A DNA stretch of 64,000 bases from Escherichia phage Es2, in the sequence record OR515477.1; one strand, given 5' to 3'. The position numbers and the translations under genes are program-made. This document shows positions 15,842 through 22,032 of the stretch, piece after piece (position 1 is the stretch's first letter; the number at the start of each line of letters is the position of its first letter). Below the pieces are notes generated by a model that did no database searches, was not told the origin of the DNA, and saw only the letters and a list, made by a program, of their open reading frames with translations.

Positions 15842-16360
15842 ATGCCTAAATATAAACATATAGATTATGACCTTTTTAATAGTTACTTTTATTATGATGA
15901 AACATCGTTATCATTTTTACGCTGGCGAGAAGATCATGCCATCGCTGGTGGTTTAAATGGTAATTATTGGCAAGTTGAATTATTAGATAAAGGACAATTC
16001 AAAGTACATAGAATTATTTTTTGTATAATGAATGGTGGTATAGATAGCGAGCTAATGATTGATCATATTGATCGTAACCCCCGTAATAATAACATTTGGA
16101 ATCTTCGCGCGGTTGATAGTTCCCAGAATAACTATAATAAGACTCCTAGTGAGTATGAAAACTATAAGCGTGCTAATGGTATCCCTAGAAACATTTACGT
16201 TAATAAAATTCGCCCCCGTGATAGTTTCGGGCGTGATTATTTAACTGCTCAAATTAAGAATCCTATTACTAACAAGCGTGTTAGTAAGTCTGGTTATGAT
16301 TTACAAGAGTTATTATTATGGCTTGAAGCTAAAAAAGCTGAATTCGGAATTGTCAATTAA
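15842..16360 (+). CDS. HNH homing endonuclease (HNH_3-type)
   Basis: IDHIDRNPRNNNIWNLR motif; sits in an AT-rich islet within the higher-GC region. Confidence 0.6.
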   Translation: MPKYKHIDYDLFNSYFYYDETSLSFLRWREDHAIAGGLNGNYWQVELLDKGQFKVHRIIFCIMNGGIDSELMIDHIDRNPRNNNIWNLRAVDSSQNNYNKTPSEYENYKRANGIPRNIYVNKIRPRDSFGRDYLTAQIKNPITNKRVSKSGYDLQELLLWLEAKKAEFGIVN

Positions 16361-16384
16361 TTTATTTTATAAATTAACTCGTTT

Positions 16385-16416
16385 AGTCTTGATTTTTAAA
16401 AGTCAAGACCTTTTTC
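16385..16416 (+). terminator. rho-independent terminator
   Basis: AGTCTTGA-loop-TCAAGAC followed by CTTTTT. Confidence 0.5.
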
Positions 16417-16585
16417 AACTATTTTTCAATTTTGCGGTTGTTAAATATTTGTTAAACCGAAAATAAGCCGCCTAAAACGCCCCAGAACGCGATGAAAGTT
16501 TTAGTCATGCCATTGCATTGCCTACCCTCGTTTATCGCTACCACGAGCTTTTTAGATTTTGTCAAGTAGGGGAAAGCAAATATAA

Positions 16586-16876
16586 ATGAAAAAATTACTT
16601 GCCTATCTGCTATGTTTTGTGGTATTCACGCGCCCGTTTCTTTTAATTTTAGTGTGCCGCGCCCTAGTCGCCGCACGCCGTCCGGTGAATCGTGTCTTTA
16701 CGTTTCTTTACAAAAATAAGGTTGCGCCATTTTCGGGAATCCCCTATTATTTATCACGTAGGGCGGCAATGACGAACTACACGGCGGGAAGTTTACCGCC
16801 ACGCTCTTTAAAAATTGGGTATATCTTAAAGCCTATCGGCGGTAAACTTATTCATTATAAGGAATCGACGATATGA
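16586..16876 (+). CDS. hypothetical protein (96 aa)
   Basis: ORF with weak RBS and unusual Arg-rich hydrophobic composition. Confidence 0.25.
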   Translation: MKKLLAYLLCFVVFTRPFLLILVCRALVAARRPVNRVFTFLYKNKVAPFSGIPYYLSRRAAMTNYTAGSLPPRSLKIGYILKPIGGKLIHYKESTI

Positions 16877-17076
16877 AACAAACGCTTTTGATAACTGGTA
16901 AACCAGCTAAAAAATTAGATGGTACTACTAAAAAATTGTTGACAGTAGCGCAAAGATCCATAAGATATAGATTCACGCAGTACAAGAAAGGCCGCCAGCA
17001 AGGTTTAGAAATGATCTGGCGAAATATTATGATTGACCTGAAAGAAAATCATAAAAAACTGCAAAAAATTGTTTGA
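16873..17076 (+). CDS. hypothetical basic protein (67 aa)
   Basis: RBS AAGGA upstream. Confidence 0.3.
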   Translation: MKQTLLITGKPAKKLDGTTKKLLTVAQRSIRYRFTQYKKGRQQGLEMIWRNIMIDLKENHKKLQKIV

Positions 17077-17306
17077 CACCCTAGCCGATAGGCTTTAAGA
17101 TGTACCCAGTTCGATGAGAGCGATAACTTGATACAATTTGACGGTCGGTGCTTACCATAATGCATCCCGCCCCCTAACTGGGATATAGCGGCCTGAGTGG
17201 AGTTCTTTAAATTGATTATAATGGCGAGCGGATTGTTACTTATTACCTGCTACTATTTTCTAGTAGGTAATGCGAAACAATCCCCTAAATAACTGGAGTT
17301 TATACT

Positions 17307-17558
17307 ATGCAAAACGTTACTAATGCGCCGAAAATTGGTCAATCCGTTTTTATCCCTTTCGTTACCAAAACGGATGAATTAACCGGAAAAGCCGAACGTA
17401 TTAAAGGTGCGGCGCTTATGCCGTTCGATACAATCGACGCGGTATACGCTGAAAATGAACGCAGTAACAACGGCAAGCCGATTTATAACGTTCGCGTTAA
17501 ATCCGGCGACGTTGTAAAGGTTGTTCAACGCAACGAAAAATGGGAAGCTGTACTGTAA
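17307..17558 (+). CDS. pre-early-type hypothetical protein (83 aa)
   Basis: Conserved TCCCCTAAAT leader plus GGAG SD; followed by perfect hairpin at 17574-17599. Confidence 0.45.
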   Translation: MQNVTNAPKIGQSVFIPFVTKTDELTGKAERIKGAALMPFDTIDAVYAENERSNNGKPIYNVRVKSGDVVKVVQRNEKWEAVL

Positions 17559-17656
17559 TCTAGTGTTAACTTTATATTCCCCTGAAATATGGGGAATATA
17601 ACGATTAACATTAGTTAATCATAATCCCTTAAATTAAACTAATAGGAGTTTATATC

Positions 17657-18064
17657 ATGACTAACGCAAAAACCGCAAAATTCGCATGGAATGAAGAAAA
17701 CACCCAAAAAGCTGTTACCATGTACCAGCAGTTAATCAACGAAAACGGTTTAGATTTCGCAAATAGTGACGGGCTGAAAGAGATTGCAAAAGCAGTAGGC
17801 GCGGCTTCTCCCGTATCCGTTCGCTCAAAATTGACCAGTGCAAAAGCCTACCAGAAAAGCGATAAGCCGCGTAAAGTTGGCGGCGGCAGTTCTGTACGCA
17901 AAGCGCATTATGTGCGTGTTATTGCTAAACATGCCATTGATTCCGGCATTATCAAAGACGCTGACGATCTGGCATCACTGGAAAGTGCAAAACTTGAAAC
18001 GCTGGACGCGGTAGCGCAATTGCTAGGCGTTGCCGATGAAGTGAAACAAGCCGCAGGCGAATAA
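17657..18064 (+). CDS. pre-early-type hypothetical protein (135 aa)
   Basis: AATCCCTTAAAT leader plus GGAG SD. Confidence 0.45.
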   Translation: MTNAKTAKFAWNEENTQKAVTMYQQLINENGLDFANSDGLKEIAKAVGAASPVSVRSKLTSAKAYQKSDKPRKVGGGSSVRKAHYVRVIAKHAIDSGIIKDADDLASLESAKLETLDAVAQLLGVADEVKQAAGE

Positions 18065-18153
18065 TAGTTATACATTGCCCTTCCTAGTGGGAGGGCAATA
18101 ATATAACTGTTTAGCGATAGTTATTTTCTTCCCTTAAATCAGGAGTTTTAAAA

Positions 18154-18351
18154 ATGATTTTCTTTCCTACTGAATCATTAATTTTAGGCTTGTTTATTAT
18201 GGCGGCCTCATTATTGTTCGCTTATTTTCAAAATGATTTAGATTCATATTATTTTAAACGTAAATCTAAGTTAGCAAAGCGTTTAGGTCTGATTTGTTTT
18301 ATTGCCGCCGTTGCTTGTGGTGTTAGTTCTAGCCTTATGCCTTTAAATTAA
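18154..18351 (+). CDS. small membrane protein (65 aa)
   Basis: TCCCTTAAAT leader; two hydrophobic segments. Confidence 0.4.
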   Translation: MIFFPTESLILGLFIMAASLLFAYFQNDLDSYYFKRKSKLAKRLGLICFIAAVACGVSSSLMPLN

Positions 18352-18447
18352 TGTTGCAAATTATAACGCCTATTATTCAAGGCGTTATATTTGGCAATAT
18401 TTGCCAATAACAAACGTTTTTTAATCCCTTTAATGGAGTTTATTACT

Positions 18448-20112
18448 ATGATTATTTCCGCAGAAAAACAAACCGTTATCCTGAAAATGGCCGCTGACTT
18501 TAATTTCTATGGTAAACGTCTGCGCGCCACTAAACTGGAGGTCTGCGACGATATATCAAAAGCGGTCTACGATACAACAAAACACTCGACCGCCATTTGT
18601 GATTGGCTGGAAGCAAATAAACCAGTTAAACCAAAAGCTGCAAAAGTAGCAAAAGCTATTAAAAACGATGAGCGCCCCGAAGCGGCTGGGATCGTTTCTA
18701 GCACGGTTGAACAGTGGGAAGTAAAACAAGGCAAACGCTTTATTATTACGTCGATTCAGAATAATACTTTCCCGCATAAAAACTTTTTGGCCTCGCTTGA
18801 ACAGTATGCTAAATACATCGGCGCTGATTTGCTTGTTTCTAAGTATATTTATAATAAAAACGGCTTCCAAAATGGTGAAGGTGCGGATGGAATCAAATAT
18901 GATTCCGCGTTCGATAAGTATATTTGCAGCAAAAACGTGTTTTTAAACAACCGCCGTTTTGCTTTCATGGCTGAAATTAACGTTTTGCCTACCGCAGATT
19001 ATCCGCTTTCTGGATTCGCTGAAACTGCAACGGCGCTTAATCTTGAAGGTCTGGCAATTGGTCACGCTAAAATCACCGCCGAAAGCGTGCCAGCTTTAAA
19101 AGGTGAAGTAGTACGCCGCATGTACTCAACCGGAACGGCAACGCTAAAAAACTACATTCAGCAGAAAGCAGGGCAAAAAGCGGAAGCGCTGCATAACTTC
19201 GGTGCGCTGATTGTTGAGTTCGACGAAGACGGTGAGTTTTTTGTACGCCAGCTTGAAACAATGGACGAAAGCGGGGTGTTTTATGATCTGAATGTTTGCG
19301 CTACTCCCGCAGGATGCTATGAAACATCGGGGCATGTTTTAGGTTTACAATATGGCGACATCCACGCAGAAAAATTAGATGATGATTGTGCCGTTGCGTC
19401 ATGGGCTGGCGAAAATAGCTTGCTTGATATTCTTAAACCAAAATATCAGTTTATCCATGACGTTCACGATTTTACATCTCGCAATCATCATAATCGTGCG
19501 TCCGGTGTATTCCTAGCGAAACAGTACGCCGCCGGACGTGATAAAGTTCTGGATGATCTTATCGATACGGGGCGCGTGCTGGAATCAATGGAACGTGATT
19601 TTAGTCAAACGATCATTGTTGAATCGAATCACGATTTGGCGCTATCCCGTTGGCTGGATGATCGTAATGCTAACATTAAAGACGATCCAGCAAACGCCGA
19701 ACTATATCACCGCCTGAATGCTGCAATTTACGCGGCAATCGGTGAACACGACGAAACGTTTAACGTGTTAGATTATGCGCTGCGCAAGGTTGCAGGTTGC
19801 GAGTTTAACGCCATTTTCCTAACAACTGACCAATCATTTAAAATTGCAGGCATCGAGTGTGGCGTACACGGTCACAACGGCATTAACGGAAGCCGTGGCA
19901 ATCCTAAACAGTTTAAGAAATTGGGCAAACTGAACACGGGGCATACGCATACGGCAAGCATTTACGGCGGGGTATACACCGCTGGCGTGGCTGGTAGTCT
20001 GGACATGGGTTACAACGTTGGCGCGTCAAGCTGGACGCAAACGCATTTAATTACCTATGCAAACGGTCAGCGCACTTTGATTGACTTTAAAAACGGTAAA
20101 TTCTTTGCGTAA
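18448..20112 (+). CDS. A1: A1-like pre-early protein with calcineurin-like metallophosphatase motifs
   Basis: 554 aa from the ATG at 18448 (T5 A1 about 556 aa, from memory); GDIH, GHNG and GHTH motifs; AATCCCTTTAAT leader. Confidence 0.55.
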   Translation: MIISAEKQTVILKMAADFNFYGKRLRATKLEVCDDISKAVYDTTKHSTAICDWLEANKPVKPKAAKVAKAIKNDERPEAAGIVSSTVEQWEVKQGKRFIITSIQNNTFPHKNFLASLEQYAKYIGADLLVSKYIYNKNGFQNGEGADGIKYDSAFDKYICSKNVFLNNRRFAFMAEINVLPTADYPLSGFAETATALNLEGLAIGHAKITAESVPALKGEVVRRMYSTGTATLKNYIQQKAGQKAEALHNFGALIVEFDEDGEFFVRQLETMDESGVFYDLNVCATPAGCYETSGHVLGLQYGDIHAEKLDDDCAVASWAGENSLLDILKPKYQFIHDVHDFTSRNHHNRASGVFLAKQYAAGRDKVLDDLIDTGRVLESMERDFSQTIIVESNHDLALSRWLDDRNANIKDDPANAELYHRLNAAIYAAIGEHDETFNVLDYALRKVAGCEFNAIFLTTDQSFKIAGIECGVHGHNGINGSRGNPKQFKKLGKLNTGHTHTASIYGGVYTAGVAGSLDMGYNVGASSWTQTHLITYANGQRTLIDFKNGKFFA

Positions 20113-20166
20113 TTAAATTATTACCCTAGCGGCTTGAAATACAGCCGCTATTATAGGAGTCAAAAA

Positions 20167-20424
20167 ATGAAAGTTACATTACCCAAAACATTAGACGAAA
20201 AAGCGTTTATTTCCCCCGATGAAATGGAATCCGATAAAGTTTACAGCTTCGGGCCTATCCTAGCCGCCAAAACTAATACTGATGGAATTATTACAGTCGA
20301 TTATCGTGATAATGATATTGTTCCCTTTGACGATGATGACGCTTTTTACGAGTGGTTAAGCGATAATAATTTACCCGTAAGTGGTGAATTAACGCCGTAT
20401 CAGATGCAAATCATTATCAAATAA
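20167..20424 (+). CDS. pre-early-type hypothetical acidic protein (85 aa)
   Basis: Start at ATG with RBS GGAG upstream (MKVTLPK). Confidence 0.4.
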   Translation: MKVTLPKTLDEKAFISPDEMESDKVYSFGPILAAKTNTDGIITVDYRDNDIVPFDDDDAFYEWLSDNNLPVSGELTPYQMQIIIK

Positions 20425-20463
20425 TTTAAATCCCCTTATTAAACTAATTGGAGTTTTATAACT

Positions 20464-20856
20464 ATGAAAAAGCAAAATATCCCATTCGACCGCGCTCAGT
20501 CCTCAATTGTTCTGGTTTATTCCAACGGCGAACGTTACCACGTCGAGGCGGGGCACGTTATTGATGACCTATTAGATTTCAATGACGCTTTGCAGGTTAC
20601 TACCTTTGCATATACGCAGGGCAAACTAACCAGCCATATTAAAGCAAAAGGCGTTTATGTTGACACGGTGAAACAAGAAACGATTATCATCGACGCCGTA
20701 AAATCCGGCCTAGCCTTTGCAGTTGTCGCGCCTTGCCTCGCTTGCCTTGATGATCAATTGATTAGTGCAAAGGTCTACACATGTGCGGGGATTCGTTCTA
20801 GCGTATCCGGTGAGGATGTTAGTTTTATCGCTGATGCGTTGGCTTATGGTCTTTAA
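20464..20856 (+). CDS. pre-early-type hypothetical protein (130 aa), possible A2-like
   Basis: AATCCCCTTATTAAA leader plus GGAG SD; A2 assignment is a guess from size and position only. Confidence 0.35.
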   Translation: MKKQNIPFDRAQSSIVLVYSNGERYHVEAGHVIDDLLDFNDALQVTTFAYTQGKLTSHIKAKGVYVDTVKQETIIIDAVKSGLAFAVVAPCLACLDDQLISAKVYTCAGIRSSVSGEDVSFIADALAYGL

Positions 20857-20936
20857 TAGTTGATTTATTATTGCCCGCTTATAAATAGCGGGTAATGCTG
20901 AATTAATCTAATCCCTTAAATGGAGAACGTAACAAA

Positions 20937-21671
20937 ATGAGTCAAGTTAAAACGAATATTACCCGCTCTTTCCCGCATATTTCCCGCGTTATGATTTGGG
21001 ATCTGGACGGCACTATCATTAATTCTTTCCATCGTGTAGCGCCTTGTTTTGATAGCGAGGGCAATTTAGATTTAAATAAATATAAAAATGAAGCCTGCAA
21101 ACATCATTTAATAATGCAGGATTCATTATTGCCATTAGTTGAATATATGCGCCAGTGTATGAATGACGCTAACACGTTAAACATTATTTGCACCGCTCGA
21201 CTGATGAGCAAGTCAGATTATTATTTCTTGCGTAAACAAGGATTGCGGGGGCGTGGAAATAGCAATATCCGCGTGTTTTCCCGCGATACCCTGCACAAAT
21301 ACTTTAAAGCTGATAAAGTTAGCGAGATATACCACAGTAAGGACGCAGTTTATAAATCTTATTATTTTGAATTATTTAAACAATTATATCCGAACGCTGA
21401 TTTTACAATGATTGATGATCATAAAGGCGTGTTAGCGGCGGCGGCATCATACGGATTTAAAACGCTGGACGCACAAGCCGTTAACGATATTCTATCAATC
21501 GGTGTTACATTGATTGGTGAAACCTTTATTGATGAATCGCTCGACGATGATAATGATTATCAGTTCCTAGCAGACCGCCTGCAATTATGTTGGGAAGGTA
21601 TGACCGAGGAAGAACGCGCAGAATATAGTTGCAGTCCTCAACAGTACATCGAGAAATTAAAAGTTGCATAA
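20937..21671 (+). CDS. dmp: 5'-deoxyribonucleotidase (HAD superfamily), Dmp-like
   Basis: 244 aa, same length as T5 Dmp (from memory); WDLDGTI HAD motif I; AATCCCTTAAAT leader. Confidence 0.65.
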   Translation: MSQVKTNITRSFPHISRVMIWDLDGTIINSFHRVAPCFDSEGNLDLNKYKNEACKHHLIMQDSLLPLVEYMRQCMNDANTLNIICTARLMSKSDYYFLRKQGLRGRGNSNIRVFSRDTLHKYFKADKVSEIYHSKDAVYKSYYFELFKQLYPNADFTMIDDHKGVLAAAASYGFKTLDAQAVNDILSIGVTLIGETFIDESLDDDNDYQFLADRLQLCWEGMTEEERAEYSCSPQQYIEKLKVA

Positions 21672-21828
21672 TAATTAAAGTTGAAATAGTCACGGTGTGT
21701 AATGATAACATGCCGTGACTATTAGTCTGCTAAGTACCGGGCGGTAATGAGACTCATTCTCATCTGGTGGGCCACTGGACACACCTCCATGTGTAATCTT
21801 ATGAAATTTGGCAAAAAGGTAATTAGCG

Positions 21829-22032
21829 CTATTTACGGACTGACTGCTCAAAGACTTCCCGCCACAGAGGGTCAGTCTTAACTAGATTATTAATATGCTC
21901 AATAGCTTCATCAAATCTCATGAATCCTTCCGGGATTTCCGAAGACTTAGGAAAAACTTGCAGCATCTCCTGTGTGATACCCATCTTTTCAAGATCTTCT
22001 TGGGTTAACTTAAACTGTCCGAATTCTTTCAT
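21829..22032 (-). CDS. hypothetical protein (67 aa)
   Basis: ORF with stop/start overlap to upstream gene. Confidence 0.4.
   Translation of the reverse strand: MKEFGQFKLTQEDLEKMGITQEMLQVFPKSSEIPEGFMRFDEAIEHINNLVKTDPLWREVFEQSVRK

Follow-up and report, generated by a model that had tools for sequence, protein, structure and literature searches.

Stem-loops between cistrons and enhancers lying close to the Shine-Dalgarno (SD) sequence are already known kinds of element. The RNase III sites of phage T7 (R0.3, R0.5, R1, R1.1, and R1.3) are, like the modules described below, intercistronic imperfect hairpins of ~20 base pairs (bp) that have no U-tract and stand ahead of the next ribosome-binding site (RBS). 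T7 gene 10 reportedly carries a translational enhancer, epsilon (UUAACUUUA), and T4-type phages are said to contain mobile regulatory cassettes, the PeSLs, which combine an early promoter with a stem-loop. Here, we describe a module composed of a hairpin without a U-tract and a short box with a CCC core, placed just 5' of the SD sequence, in Escherichia phage Es2 (sequence record OR515477.1; the whole stretch of 64,000 nucleotides (nt) that was analyzed is called the window). The module recurs along 17307-21671 (+ strand), which its sequence identifies as a T5-like phage's leftward pre-early (first-step-transfer) operon, read in reverse orientation relative to T5. The seven genes in this interval follow the order of the annotated T5 genome, and 17000-21700 shows 91-93% DNA identity to many T5-like Salmonella and Escherichia phages.

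The pre-early genes of T5 take over the cell in minutes, by means of host DNA degradation, the drive for second-step transfer, and the inhibition of restriction and repair, and current work on their expression covers promoters only. In the literature searched, we found no description of the CCC box or of its pairing with structure-selected hairpins lacking a U-tract; Davison's 2015 review of the pre-early genes may hold one.

A box next to the Shine-Dalgarno sequence

Six of the seven genes are preceded by a box with the consensus (A/U)AUCCC(U/C)U(U/A)A(A/U)U (AAUCCCUUAAAU), whose 3' end lies 0-10 nt 5' of a GGAG SD sequence and 13-23 nt 5' of the ATG. The box is exact (AATCCCYTAAAT) at 17279, 17623, and 20910, has one mismatch at 18423 (AATCCCTTTAAT), and has two mismatches at 18128 (CTTCCCTTAAAT) and 20429 (AATCCCCTTATT). 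An initial annotation of this DNA had placed a motif of the type AATCCC(T/C)TAAAT before the same six genes, always just 5' of a GGAG, and both points hold. It had, however, counted six consecutive genes, while the operon has seven, the fifth of which, T5.003 (ATG 20167), has a hairpin upstream and no box.

The box is specific to this operon. With up to one mismatch allowed, it is found seven times in the window against 1.28 expected, a number reached in none of 100 shuffles. A composite that joins the box to the SD sequence and the start codon (CCCYTWWW-N0-14-GGAG-N4-13-NTG) occurs six times when both strands of the 64 kb are searched, always on the + strand and always within 17282-20937. In an unbiased k-mer comparison, AATCCC was present in five of the six operon leaders and in none of the 58 other leaders of SD-bearing open reading frames (ORFs) (p=8e-7). 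The strict composite, when searched on both strands of the 111-kb unique genome of T5 itself, is found only before T5.007, A2, A1, and T5.002. The module-bearing genes are separated by long spacers of 39-100 nt; in the rightward pre-early operon, genes abut or overlap, and the module is absent.

To follow the box in relatives, we aligned ~40 T5-like loci from IMG/VR, together with annotated phages, junction by junction (labels as in Table 1). The IG1 box, ATCCCTTAAATTAAA, is invariant in 24 distinct relatives, the IG3 box, TCCCTTTAATGGAG, is nearly invariant in 26, and the ATCCCT of IG6 is invariant or nearly so. The box stays fixed while flanking bases drift (24-26 distinct relatives), and it is evidently under purifying selection. 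A loosened composite is present in three to six sense-strand copies per locus, with no antisense copy, in phages Spivey, My1, DU_PP_V, and Proteus phage 1, whose hosts are Klebsiella (Spivey), Pectobacterium (My1 and DU_PP_V), and Proteus (phage 1), with an A1 identity of 42-73%. The composite is absent from the locus of a Vibrio T5-like phage, and 26 control loci with A1 homologues from outside the Demerecviridae (~205 kb) gave four matches. Across at least five genera of Demerecviridae infecting Enterobacterales, the box marks exactly this operon. The initial annotation had made its proposal depend on conservation of the motif in related genomes; our motif search found such conservation across genera, but not for the copy at 17279.

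The box was compared with several known kinds of site. No sigma-70 promoter call overlaps any copy, TTAAAT and TTTAAT are without the A at position 2, and with a transcription start ~7 nt downstream, the RNA would lose the conserved GGAG at 18435 and 20922. Pairing with 16S rRNA amounts to two 6-mer complementarities (240-245 and 451-456), where shuffled boxes give a mean of 2.3, and the duplex energy has p=0.25; the 6-nt match to 451-456 adjoins the target of T7 epsilon at 458-466, an observation that is post hoc and not significant. A search of the 200 nt upstream and the 120 nt downstream for pairing with nearby RNA, either as an extension of the lower stem or in sequestration of the SD sequence, revealed no consistent partner (p=0.07-0.87). 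Predicted pairs between box and SD sequence are limited to two or three weak C-G pairs, and the box is mostly unpaired in the predicted folds (unpaired probability 0.54-0.82). An RNase E consensus (RN/WUU) fits, by eye, the copy at 17623 only. When compared with the gamma-proteobacterial boxA consensus, GYTCTTTAANA (PMC5725501), TCCCTTTAATG has three mismatches (G1, T3, and A11) and TCCCTTAAATT has four.

Hairpins at the gene ends

Stem-loops follow six of the seven genes. The exception is T5.003, whose 39-nt junction with T5.002 (20425-20463) folds into no hairpin and contains the box only; the initial claim that six consecutive genes each end in a hairpin does not hold. The hairpins quoted in that annotation do exist (17574-17599, 18074-18099, 18362-18389, 20127-20150, and 20868-20896), but most are far longer (20-25 bp) than described. 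The operon hairpins are G+C-rich, and in the long ones (20-25 bp in total), a bulge or small internal loop separates an upper stem of ~11 bp from a lower stem of 8-14 bp. A helix of at least 20 bp is present in the leader and at four of the six gene junctions, but not at IG4 (8 bp) or in the shorter alleles of relatives. The whole window contains ~11 compact hairpins of at least 20 bp, six of which are on the sense strand of the 4.5-kb operon, a ~30-fold enrichment.

As intrinsic terminators, the hairpins of this phage have the expected stem-loop but no U-run. The 8 nt 3' of the stem contain one to three U in the five long hairpins, where a terminator would have at least five, the tail of the IG4 hairpin is AUUAUAGG, and no U-tract follows the terminal hairpin. 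Consistent with this, a terminator scan called none of the operon hairpins, so the initial description of hairpins lacking a T-run was accurate. The scan called terminators at 16386-16409 and 14241-14216, and canonical T-run terminators are found in the same genome after hegG and in the neighboring rightward pre-early operon. A search of 16500-22000 with Rfam covariance models returned chance-level matches only, far under the gathering scores. In phage BB1 (MT843274; L002 4558-4616), the deposited annotation calls the homologue of the IG1 hairpin a "terminator," though it has no U-tract.

Comparison of relatives reveals that the stems covary. The IG0 hairpin, which has 18-23 bp in 19 distinct relatives, displays a compensatory C-G to U-A change at one pair, and the IG3 hairpin (20-24 bp) a compensatory U-A to G-C change at its apex. 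In IG1 (22-27 bp), there are four compensatory pairs, one of which occurs as U-A, A-U, G-C, and C-G, while in IG6 seven pairs show compensatory change; in neither hairpin was the covariation matched by any of 500 column shuffles or by any slid control. Where only one side of an upper-stem pair has changed, the result is nearly always G.U on the sense strand, a sign that selection acts on the sense RNA. Moreover, IG6 exists in several unrelated alleles, all of them hairpin-forming and most with 21-24 bp, and the hairpin after dmp exists in two, both with stems of 16-24 bp. It is thus apparently the pairing of the hairpins, rather than their sequence, that is kept by selection. The initial annotation had viewed hairpins and boxes as repeated RNA-level units and not as promoter-terminator pairs, and the compensatory changes, the missing U-tracts, and the lack of a promoter at the box all agree with that view.

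Some junctions have been replaced altogether. At the A2-T5.005 junction (18063-18145; L003 2633-2691; L036, L039), two unrelated alleles are found: the IG2 hairpin has 20-21 bp in the allele of this phage and 9 bp in the alternative allele of relatives. The short allele (the 9-bp hairpin and TTTCCCTTTGACCGGAG) is near-identical in Spivey and in Epseptimavirus-like phages (Salmonella or E. coli phages), whose A1 proteins are only ~73% identical to that of Spivey, and this suggests that the junction was exchanged between genera. In My1 (L004 5335-5398) and Proteus phage 1 (L005 6075-6142), the equivalent hairpin has a U-tract directly before the box and SD sequence (aaagcggggttttattccccgcTTTTTctatCCCTTAATTGGAG and agggcTTTataTTTTCCCTTTAATTAGGAG, respectively). 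These two hairpins are evidently canonical intrinsic terminators, and the T5-like state without U-tracts may be derived.

The two parts of the module are separable. In T5-like phages without T5.003, the A1-T5.002 junction is contiguous and reads stop codon, 12-bp hairpin, CCCCTTATTAAATTAATTGGAG, and ATG. In the window, T5.003, with an SD sequence of its own, sits exactly between the A1 hairpin and the T5.002 box. The hairpin thus belongs, as a 3' element, to the gene before it, and the box, as a 5' element, to the gene after it, and accessory genes enter at the boundary of the two. A comparison that included loci L010, L018, L020, L023, and L046, among others, showed that T5.003 is present in some T5-like phages only and that others have nothing or different ORFs at the same spot. 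Junctions with accessory ORFs measure 352-610 nt, and those with ORFs other than T5.003 measure 487-610 nt.

The operon and its upstream region

The features of the operon and of the region ahead of it are listed in Table 1.

Table 1. Coordinates of genes, boxes, hairpins, and promoter-like sites in the window
Feature	Coordinates	Strand	Basis or score
Weak sigma-70-like promoter candidate, TTGCGC-17-TATTAT, upstream of boxA	16722..16750	+	Sequence inspection; inferred
Hairpin GGCGGgaagtttaCCGCC (16783-16800), then boxA GCTCTTTAAAA (16803-16813)	16783..16813	+	boxB-then-boxA order as in rrn leaders
Strong promoter-like site, TTGACA-16-TAAGAT	16939..16966	+	10/12 matches; T5 P-H22 at homologous position
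Strong promoter-like site, TTGACA-17-TAAGAT, last before the seven-gene block	17073..17101	+	10/12 matches
IG0 leader hairpin, ~21 bp; 3' strand overlaps first box copy	17230..17283	+	Fold z=-5.3
Box AATCCCCTAAAT and GGAG (17295-17298), before T5.007 ATG 17307	17279..17298	+	
T5.007 homologue (DUF7177)	17307..17558	+	ORF list, T5 annotation, domain search
IG1 hairpin, 25 bp (11-bp upper stem, bulge, 14-bp lower stem)	17556..17617	+	Fold z=-5.0
Box AATCCCTTAAAT and GGAG (17645-17648), before A2 ATG 17657	17623..17648	+	
A2, DNA-binding protein needed for second-step transfer	17657..18064	+	ORF list, T5 annotation, domain search
IG2 hairpin, 21 bp	18063..18111	+	Fold z=-4.8
Box variant CTTCCCTTAAAT and GGAG (18142-18145), before T5.005 ATG 18154	18128..18145	+	
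T5.005 homologue, small membrane protein	18154..18351	+	ORF list, T5 annotation, domain search
IG3 hairpin, 20 bp (18350-18401), overlapping small palindrome 18391-18407	18350..18407	+	Fold z=-3.6
Box AATCCCTTTAAT abutting GGAG (18435-18438), before A1 ATG 18448	18423..18438	+	
A1: host DNA degradation, second-step transfer, pre-early expression shut-off	18448..20112	+	ORF list, T5 annotation
IG4 hairpin, 8 bp (20127-20150), directly followed by GGAG (20156-20159)	20127..20159	+	
T5.003 homologue, accessory gene between A1 hairpin and T5.002 box	20167..20424	+	
Box variant AATCCCCTTATT and GGAG (20450-20453), before T5.002 ATG 20464	20429..20453	+	
T5.002 homologue	20464..20856	+	ORF list, T5 annotation, domain search
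IG6 hairpin, 22 bp; ends at box start	20857..20910	+	Fold z=-5.7
Box AATCCCTTAAAT abutting GGAG (20922-20925), before dmp ATG 20937	20910..20925	+	
dmp (5'-deoxyribonucleotidase), last gene of the operon	20937..21671	+	ORF list, T5 annotation
Terminal hairpin after dmp, 16 bp perfect, ~60 bp before ~21781	21685..21723	+	

The operon is transcribed toward the physical end of the DNA and reaches to ~110 bp from it. The first base of the T5 chromosome (its left end) aligns to ~21781, and the window therefore comes from an assembly with a collapsed terminal repeat; the sequence past ~21781 is the other end of the unique region.

Ahead of the operon, GCTCTTTAAAA at 16803-16813 matches the boxA consensus perfectly and is the sole such match in the window. 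All Demerecviridae loci examined, that of the Vibrio phage among them, have a perfect boxA on the sense strand ahead of the A2-A1 operon, and the 26 control loci contain three matches. It lies 16-35 nt 3' of a promoter of the TTGACA...TATAAT type in Proteus phage 1, the Epseptimavirus-like locus L036, Spivey, and the Vibrio phage. In the window, the promoter ahead of the perfect boxA is a weak candidate only (16722-16750): its score is under the threshold of the promoter scan, and its -10 element and spacing are kept in T5, L036, and Spivey. The conservation of boxA suggests recruitment of the host Nus antitermination complex during pre-early transcription, in the manner of rRNA operons; in the literature searched, we found no paper linking boxA with phage T5. 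The two strong promoter-like sites, at 16939 and 17073, are at or near P-H22 and P-D/E20 of T5, and in L036 the homologue of the 17073 promoter is directly followed by a perfect boxA.

Other features of this region were noted. In the leader, ~95 nt after the 17073 promoter, a boxA-like sequence, GTTCTTTAAAT (17202-17212), matches the consensus at 10 of 11 positions; it is kept in T5-like relatives, some of which carry TTCCTTAAAT. An inverted repeat of ~26 nt (16818-16845 and 17081-17108) lies on both sides of the hdi gene, and its left arm, just 3' of boxA, repeats the spacer and -10 region of the 17073 promoter in inverted orientation (gggtatatcttaaagcctatcggcgg and ccgataggctttaagatgtaccc). 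A 96-aa ORF (16586-16876; phrog_17446 over residues 1-59) overlaps the boxA hairpin region, where T5 annotates only the 36-aa T5.009; should this region be a structured leader, it is doubtful that the longer ORF is coding. Finally, a homologue of hegG (HNH homing endonuclease; 15842-16409), with a canonical terminator and T-run at 16386-16409, is located between the upstream promoter region and the boxA leader.

Interpretation and comparison with known systems

We propose, tentatively and with a probability of roughly 0.45, that the module is an RNA-level intercistronic unit in which the hairpin would serve stability or processing as a 3' element, and the box would extend the translation-initiation region in a manner specific to this operon. 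Stabilization or processing by the hairpins and translational control by the box are functions that we infer. From the strong sigma-70 promoters of this operon, which is headed by an rrn-type boxA, host RNA polymerase would read through all hairpins, which would not terminate, to ~110 bp from the DNA end. In the resulting RNA, the hairpins may block 3' exonucleases, mark points of endonucleolytic processing, and insulate each RBS from the preceding coding RNA. The box, as single-stranded RNA, could have the 30S subunit or a dedicated RNA-binding factor as its reader and could set or coordinate initiation at cistrons that would each start independently after a long structured spacer; it would then be an enhancer or, alternatively, the factor's operator. 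The terminal hairpin supports a role as exonuclease barrier, processing site, or insulator, since its structure is still kept even though a site ~60 bp from the DNA end needs no terminator.

A number of observations weigh against this proposal. T5.003 has no box and is presumably still expressed, and hence translation does not require the box. Relatives vary in the copy at 17279 (CC-NNNN-AAT), which is also part of the leader hairpin, as its 3' strand. The spacing between box and SD sequence is loose for a structural part of an RBS, at 0-10 nt in this phage and up to 14 nt elsewhere. In some phages, 15-mers (TTAATCTAATCCCTT) are identical between the IG1, IG3, and IG6 junctions, and this sharing could reflect gene conversion rather than function. 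As for the hairpins, 11 of the 21 pairs of IG1 show no variation, most of them in the lower stem, and because lower stems are nearly invariant, covariation speaks neither for nor against them. Searches of the operon proteins against Pfam and PHROGs gave no recognizable RNA-binding domain, only DUFs, a membrane protein, and the DNA-binding protein A2; since complementarity to 16S rRNA does not exceed chance either, neither of these offers a reader of the box. In the literature searched, we found neither mapped transcript ends nor RNA half-lives nor measurements of translation for this operon.

By analogy with the T7 early genes, the hairpins might instead be RNase III sites, at which the host enzyme would cut the pre-early RNA into single-gene messages, with the box near the new 5' ends. 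RNase III needs about two helical turns of helix, which is about what the five hairpins of 20-27 bp offer with their upper stem, bulge or loop, and lower stem, and when T7 early sites are folded in the same way, three of five form composite helices of 18-25 bp. Both operons are early operons transcribed by the host polymerase from very strong promoters, long hairpins are ~30-fold enriched in the one studied here, and unrelated replacement alleles of IG6 hold ~21-23 bp. The short stems are difficult to reconcile with cleavage, as IG4, the alternative IG2 allele, and the A1-T5.002 junction without T5.003 have only 8-12 bp, which is too short. Covariation says nothing about the near-invariant lower stems, there is neither sequence likeness to the T7 sites nor an Rfam match, and no paper in the literature searched links T5 and RNase III. 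Furthermore, the T5 stems are more regular than the T7 sites, which would lead to double-strand cuts and the loss of the protective hairpin. We consider RNase III cleavage plausible but somewhat unlikely, and it is the main rival to our proposal. It is improbable that the hairpins are weakened terminators or attenuators that produce a gradient of expression along the operon, with a boxA/Nus-modified polymerase passing through them and with the box as no more than the start of the next gene's leader. The equivalents in My1 and Proteus phage 1, which carry U-tracts directly before the box, fit this idea, as do the consensus boxA ahead of the operon in all Demerecviridae loci examined and the choice of the BB1 annotators to call the IG1 hairpin a terminator. 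It is, however, hard to square with the lack of a U-run after any hairpin in the window and in the ~40 T5-like loci (one to three U in 8 nt), in a genome that has canonical U-tract terminators elsewhere. Moreover, both strong promoters of this phage lie downstream of its sole perfect boxA, and antitermination of the rrn type counters mainly Rho, not intrinsic terminators.

The box itself could be a degenerate boxA, bound ahead of each gene by NusB/NusE (S10) and either reloading antitermination factors or repressing translation as at E. coli suhB; abundant pre-early RNA could even titrate Nus factors off the host rRNA operons. Its core, CCCUUUAA (18426; CCCTTTAAAAA in the Proteus phage), is one base off the boxA core CUCUUUAA and retains C4 and T6, whose mutation inactivates boxA, suhB translation is repressed by a boxA 6 nt from the SD sequence, true boxAs are present in the same operon, and the order of hairpin and box is that of boxB and boxA in rrn. 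But the box fails the consensus at three or four fixed positions, always including G1 and T3, and the true boxAs in this group keep the exact sequence GCTCTTTAA(A/C)A, which makes it unlikely that a drifted version is read by the same proteins. To our knowledge, one boxA per transcript is enough in all known systems. We therefore regard a degenerate boxA as very unlikely. A different kind of explanation, modeled on the PeSLs, would see the modules as recombination linkers for the swapping of accessory genes, conserved through repeated exchange. T5.003 and other accessory ORFs are inserted exactly between hairpin and box, IG2, IG6, and the terminal hairpin each have alternative, unrelated alleles that join conserved flanks at the box, identical 15-mers are common to IG1, IG3, and IG6 in some phages, and the alternative IG2 allele is near-identical in phages whose A1 is only 73% identical. 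What linkers leave unexplained is the CCC core fixed amid drifting neighbors, the position of the box always 0-14 nt from GGAG, and the compensatory changes in the stems. The linker explanation is quite improbable, and it is compatible with a role in expression. There is also a bolder version of our proposal, unlikely in our view, in which the UCCCUUWAAU box would be the operator of a dedicated host or phage RNA-binding factor that switches translation of the whole operon on or off as a class, and in which the operon, with its boxA and processing-type stems, would mimic an rRNA operon and so hijack Nus and RNase III. If true, this would fill in the post-transcriptional side, missing so far, of a phenomenon known for decades, the A1-dependent shut-off of T5 pre-early protein synthesis.

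Together, the box and the structure-selected hairpins at six of seven gene ends provide a mutable handle on the post-transcriptional control of host takeover. Accessory genes naturally enter between hairpin and box, which offers guidance for the engineering of T5-like therapeutic phages.

When set beside known systems, the modules share some features with each and differ in others. Intrinsic terminators are, as the T5 hairpins are, G+C-rich stem-loops after a stop codon, and canonical terminators occupy the homologous positions in My1 and Proteus phage 1; the T5-type hairpins differ in having no U-tract, in the window or in any T5-like relative. The Nus sites of rrn, lambda nut, and suhB (PMC5725501) have a true counterpart in the boxA and preceding hairpin at 16783-16813, and the intercistronic box resembles the boxA core and is SD-adjacent as in suhB. 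It departs from boxA in failing the consensus at G1, T3, and A11 and in being repeated gene by gene. The T7 RNase III sites lack a separate conserved box between hairpin and SD sequence, and the T5 modules have more regular stems, with 8-12 bp at some junctions, and no sequence likeness to them. T7 epsilon and the T5 box are both short elements rich in A/U and pyrimidines, a few nucleotides 5' of a strong SD sequence of a highly expressed phage gene, and epsilon shares CUUUAA with the T5-type box at 18423. In contrast to epsilon, the T5 box has an invariant CCC core, precedes six genes of one operon only, and has no above-chance complementarity to 16S rRNA. Finally, the PeSLs and the T5 modules are both repeated stem-loop cassettes that border small early genes, with accessory genes gained and lost at their boundaries. 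The promoter component of a PeSL is absent from the T5 modules, in which the conserved part is instead the leader box with its SD sequence.

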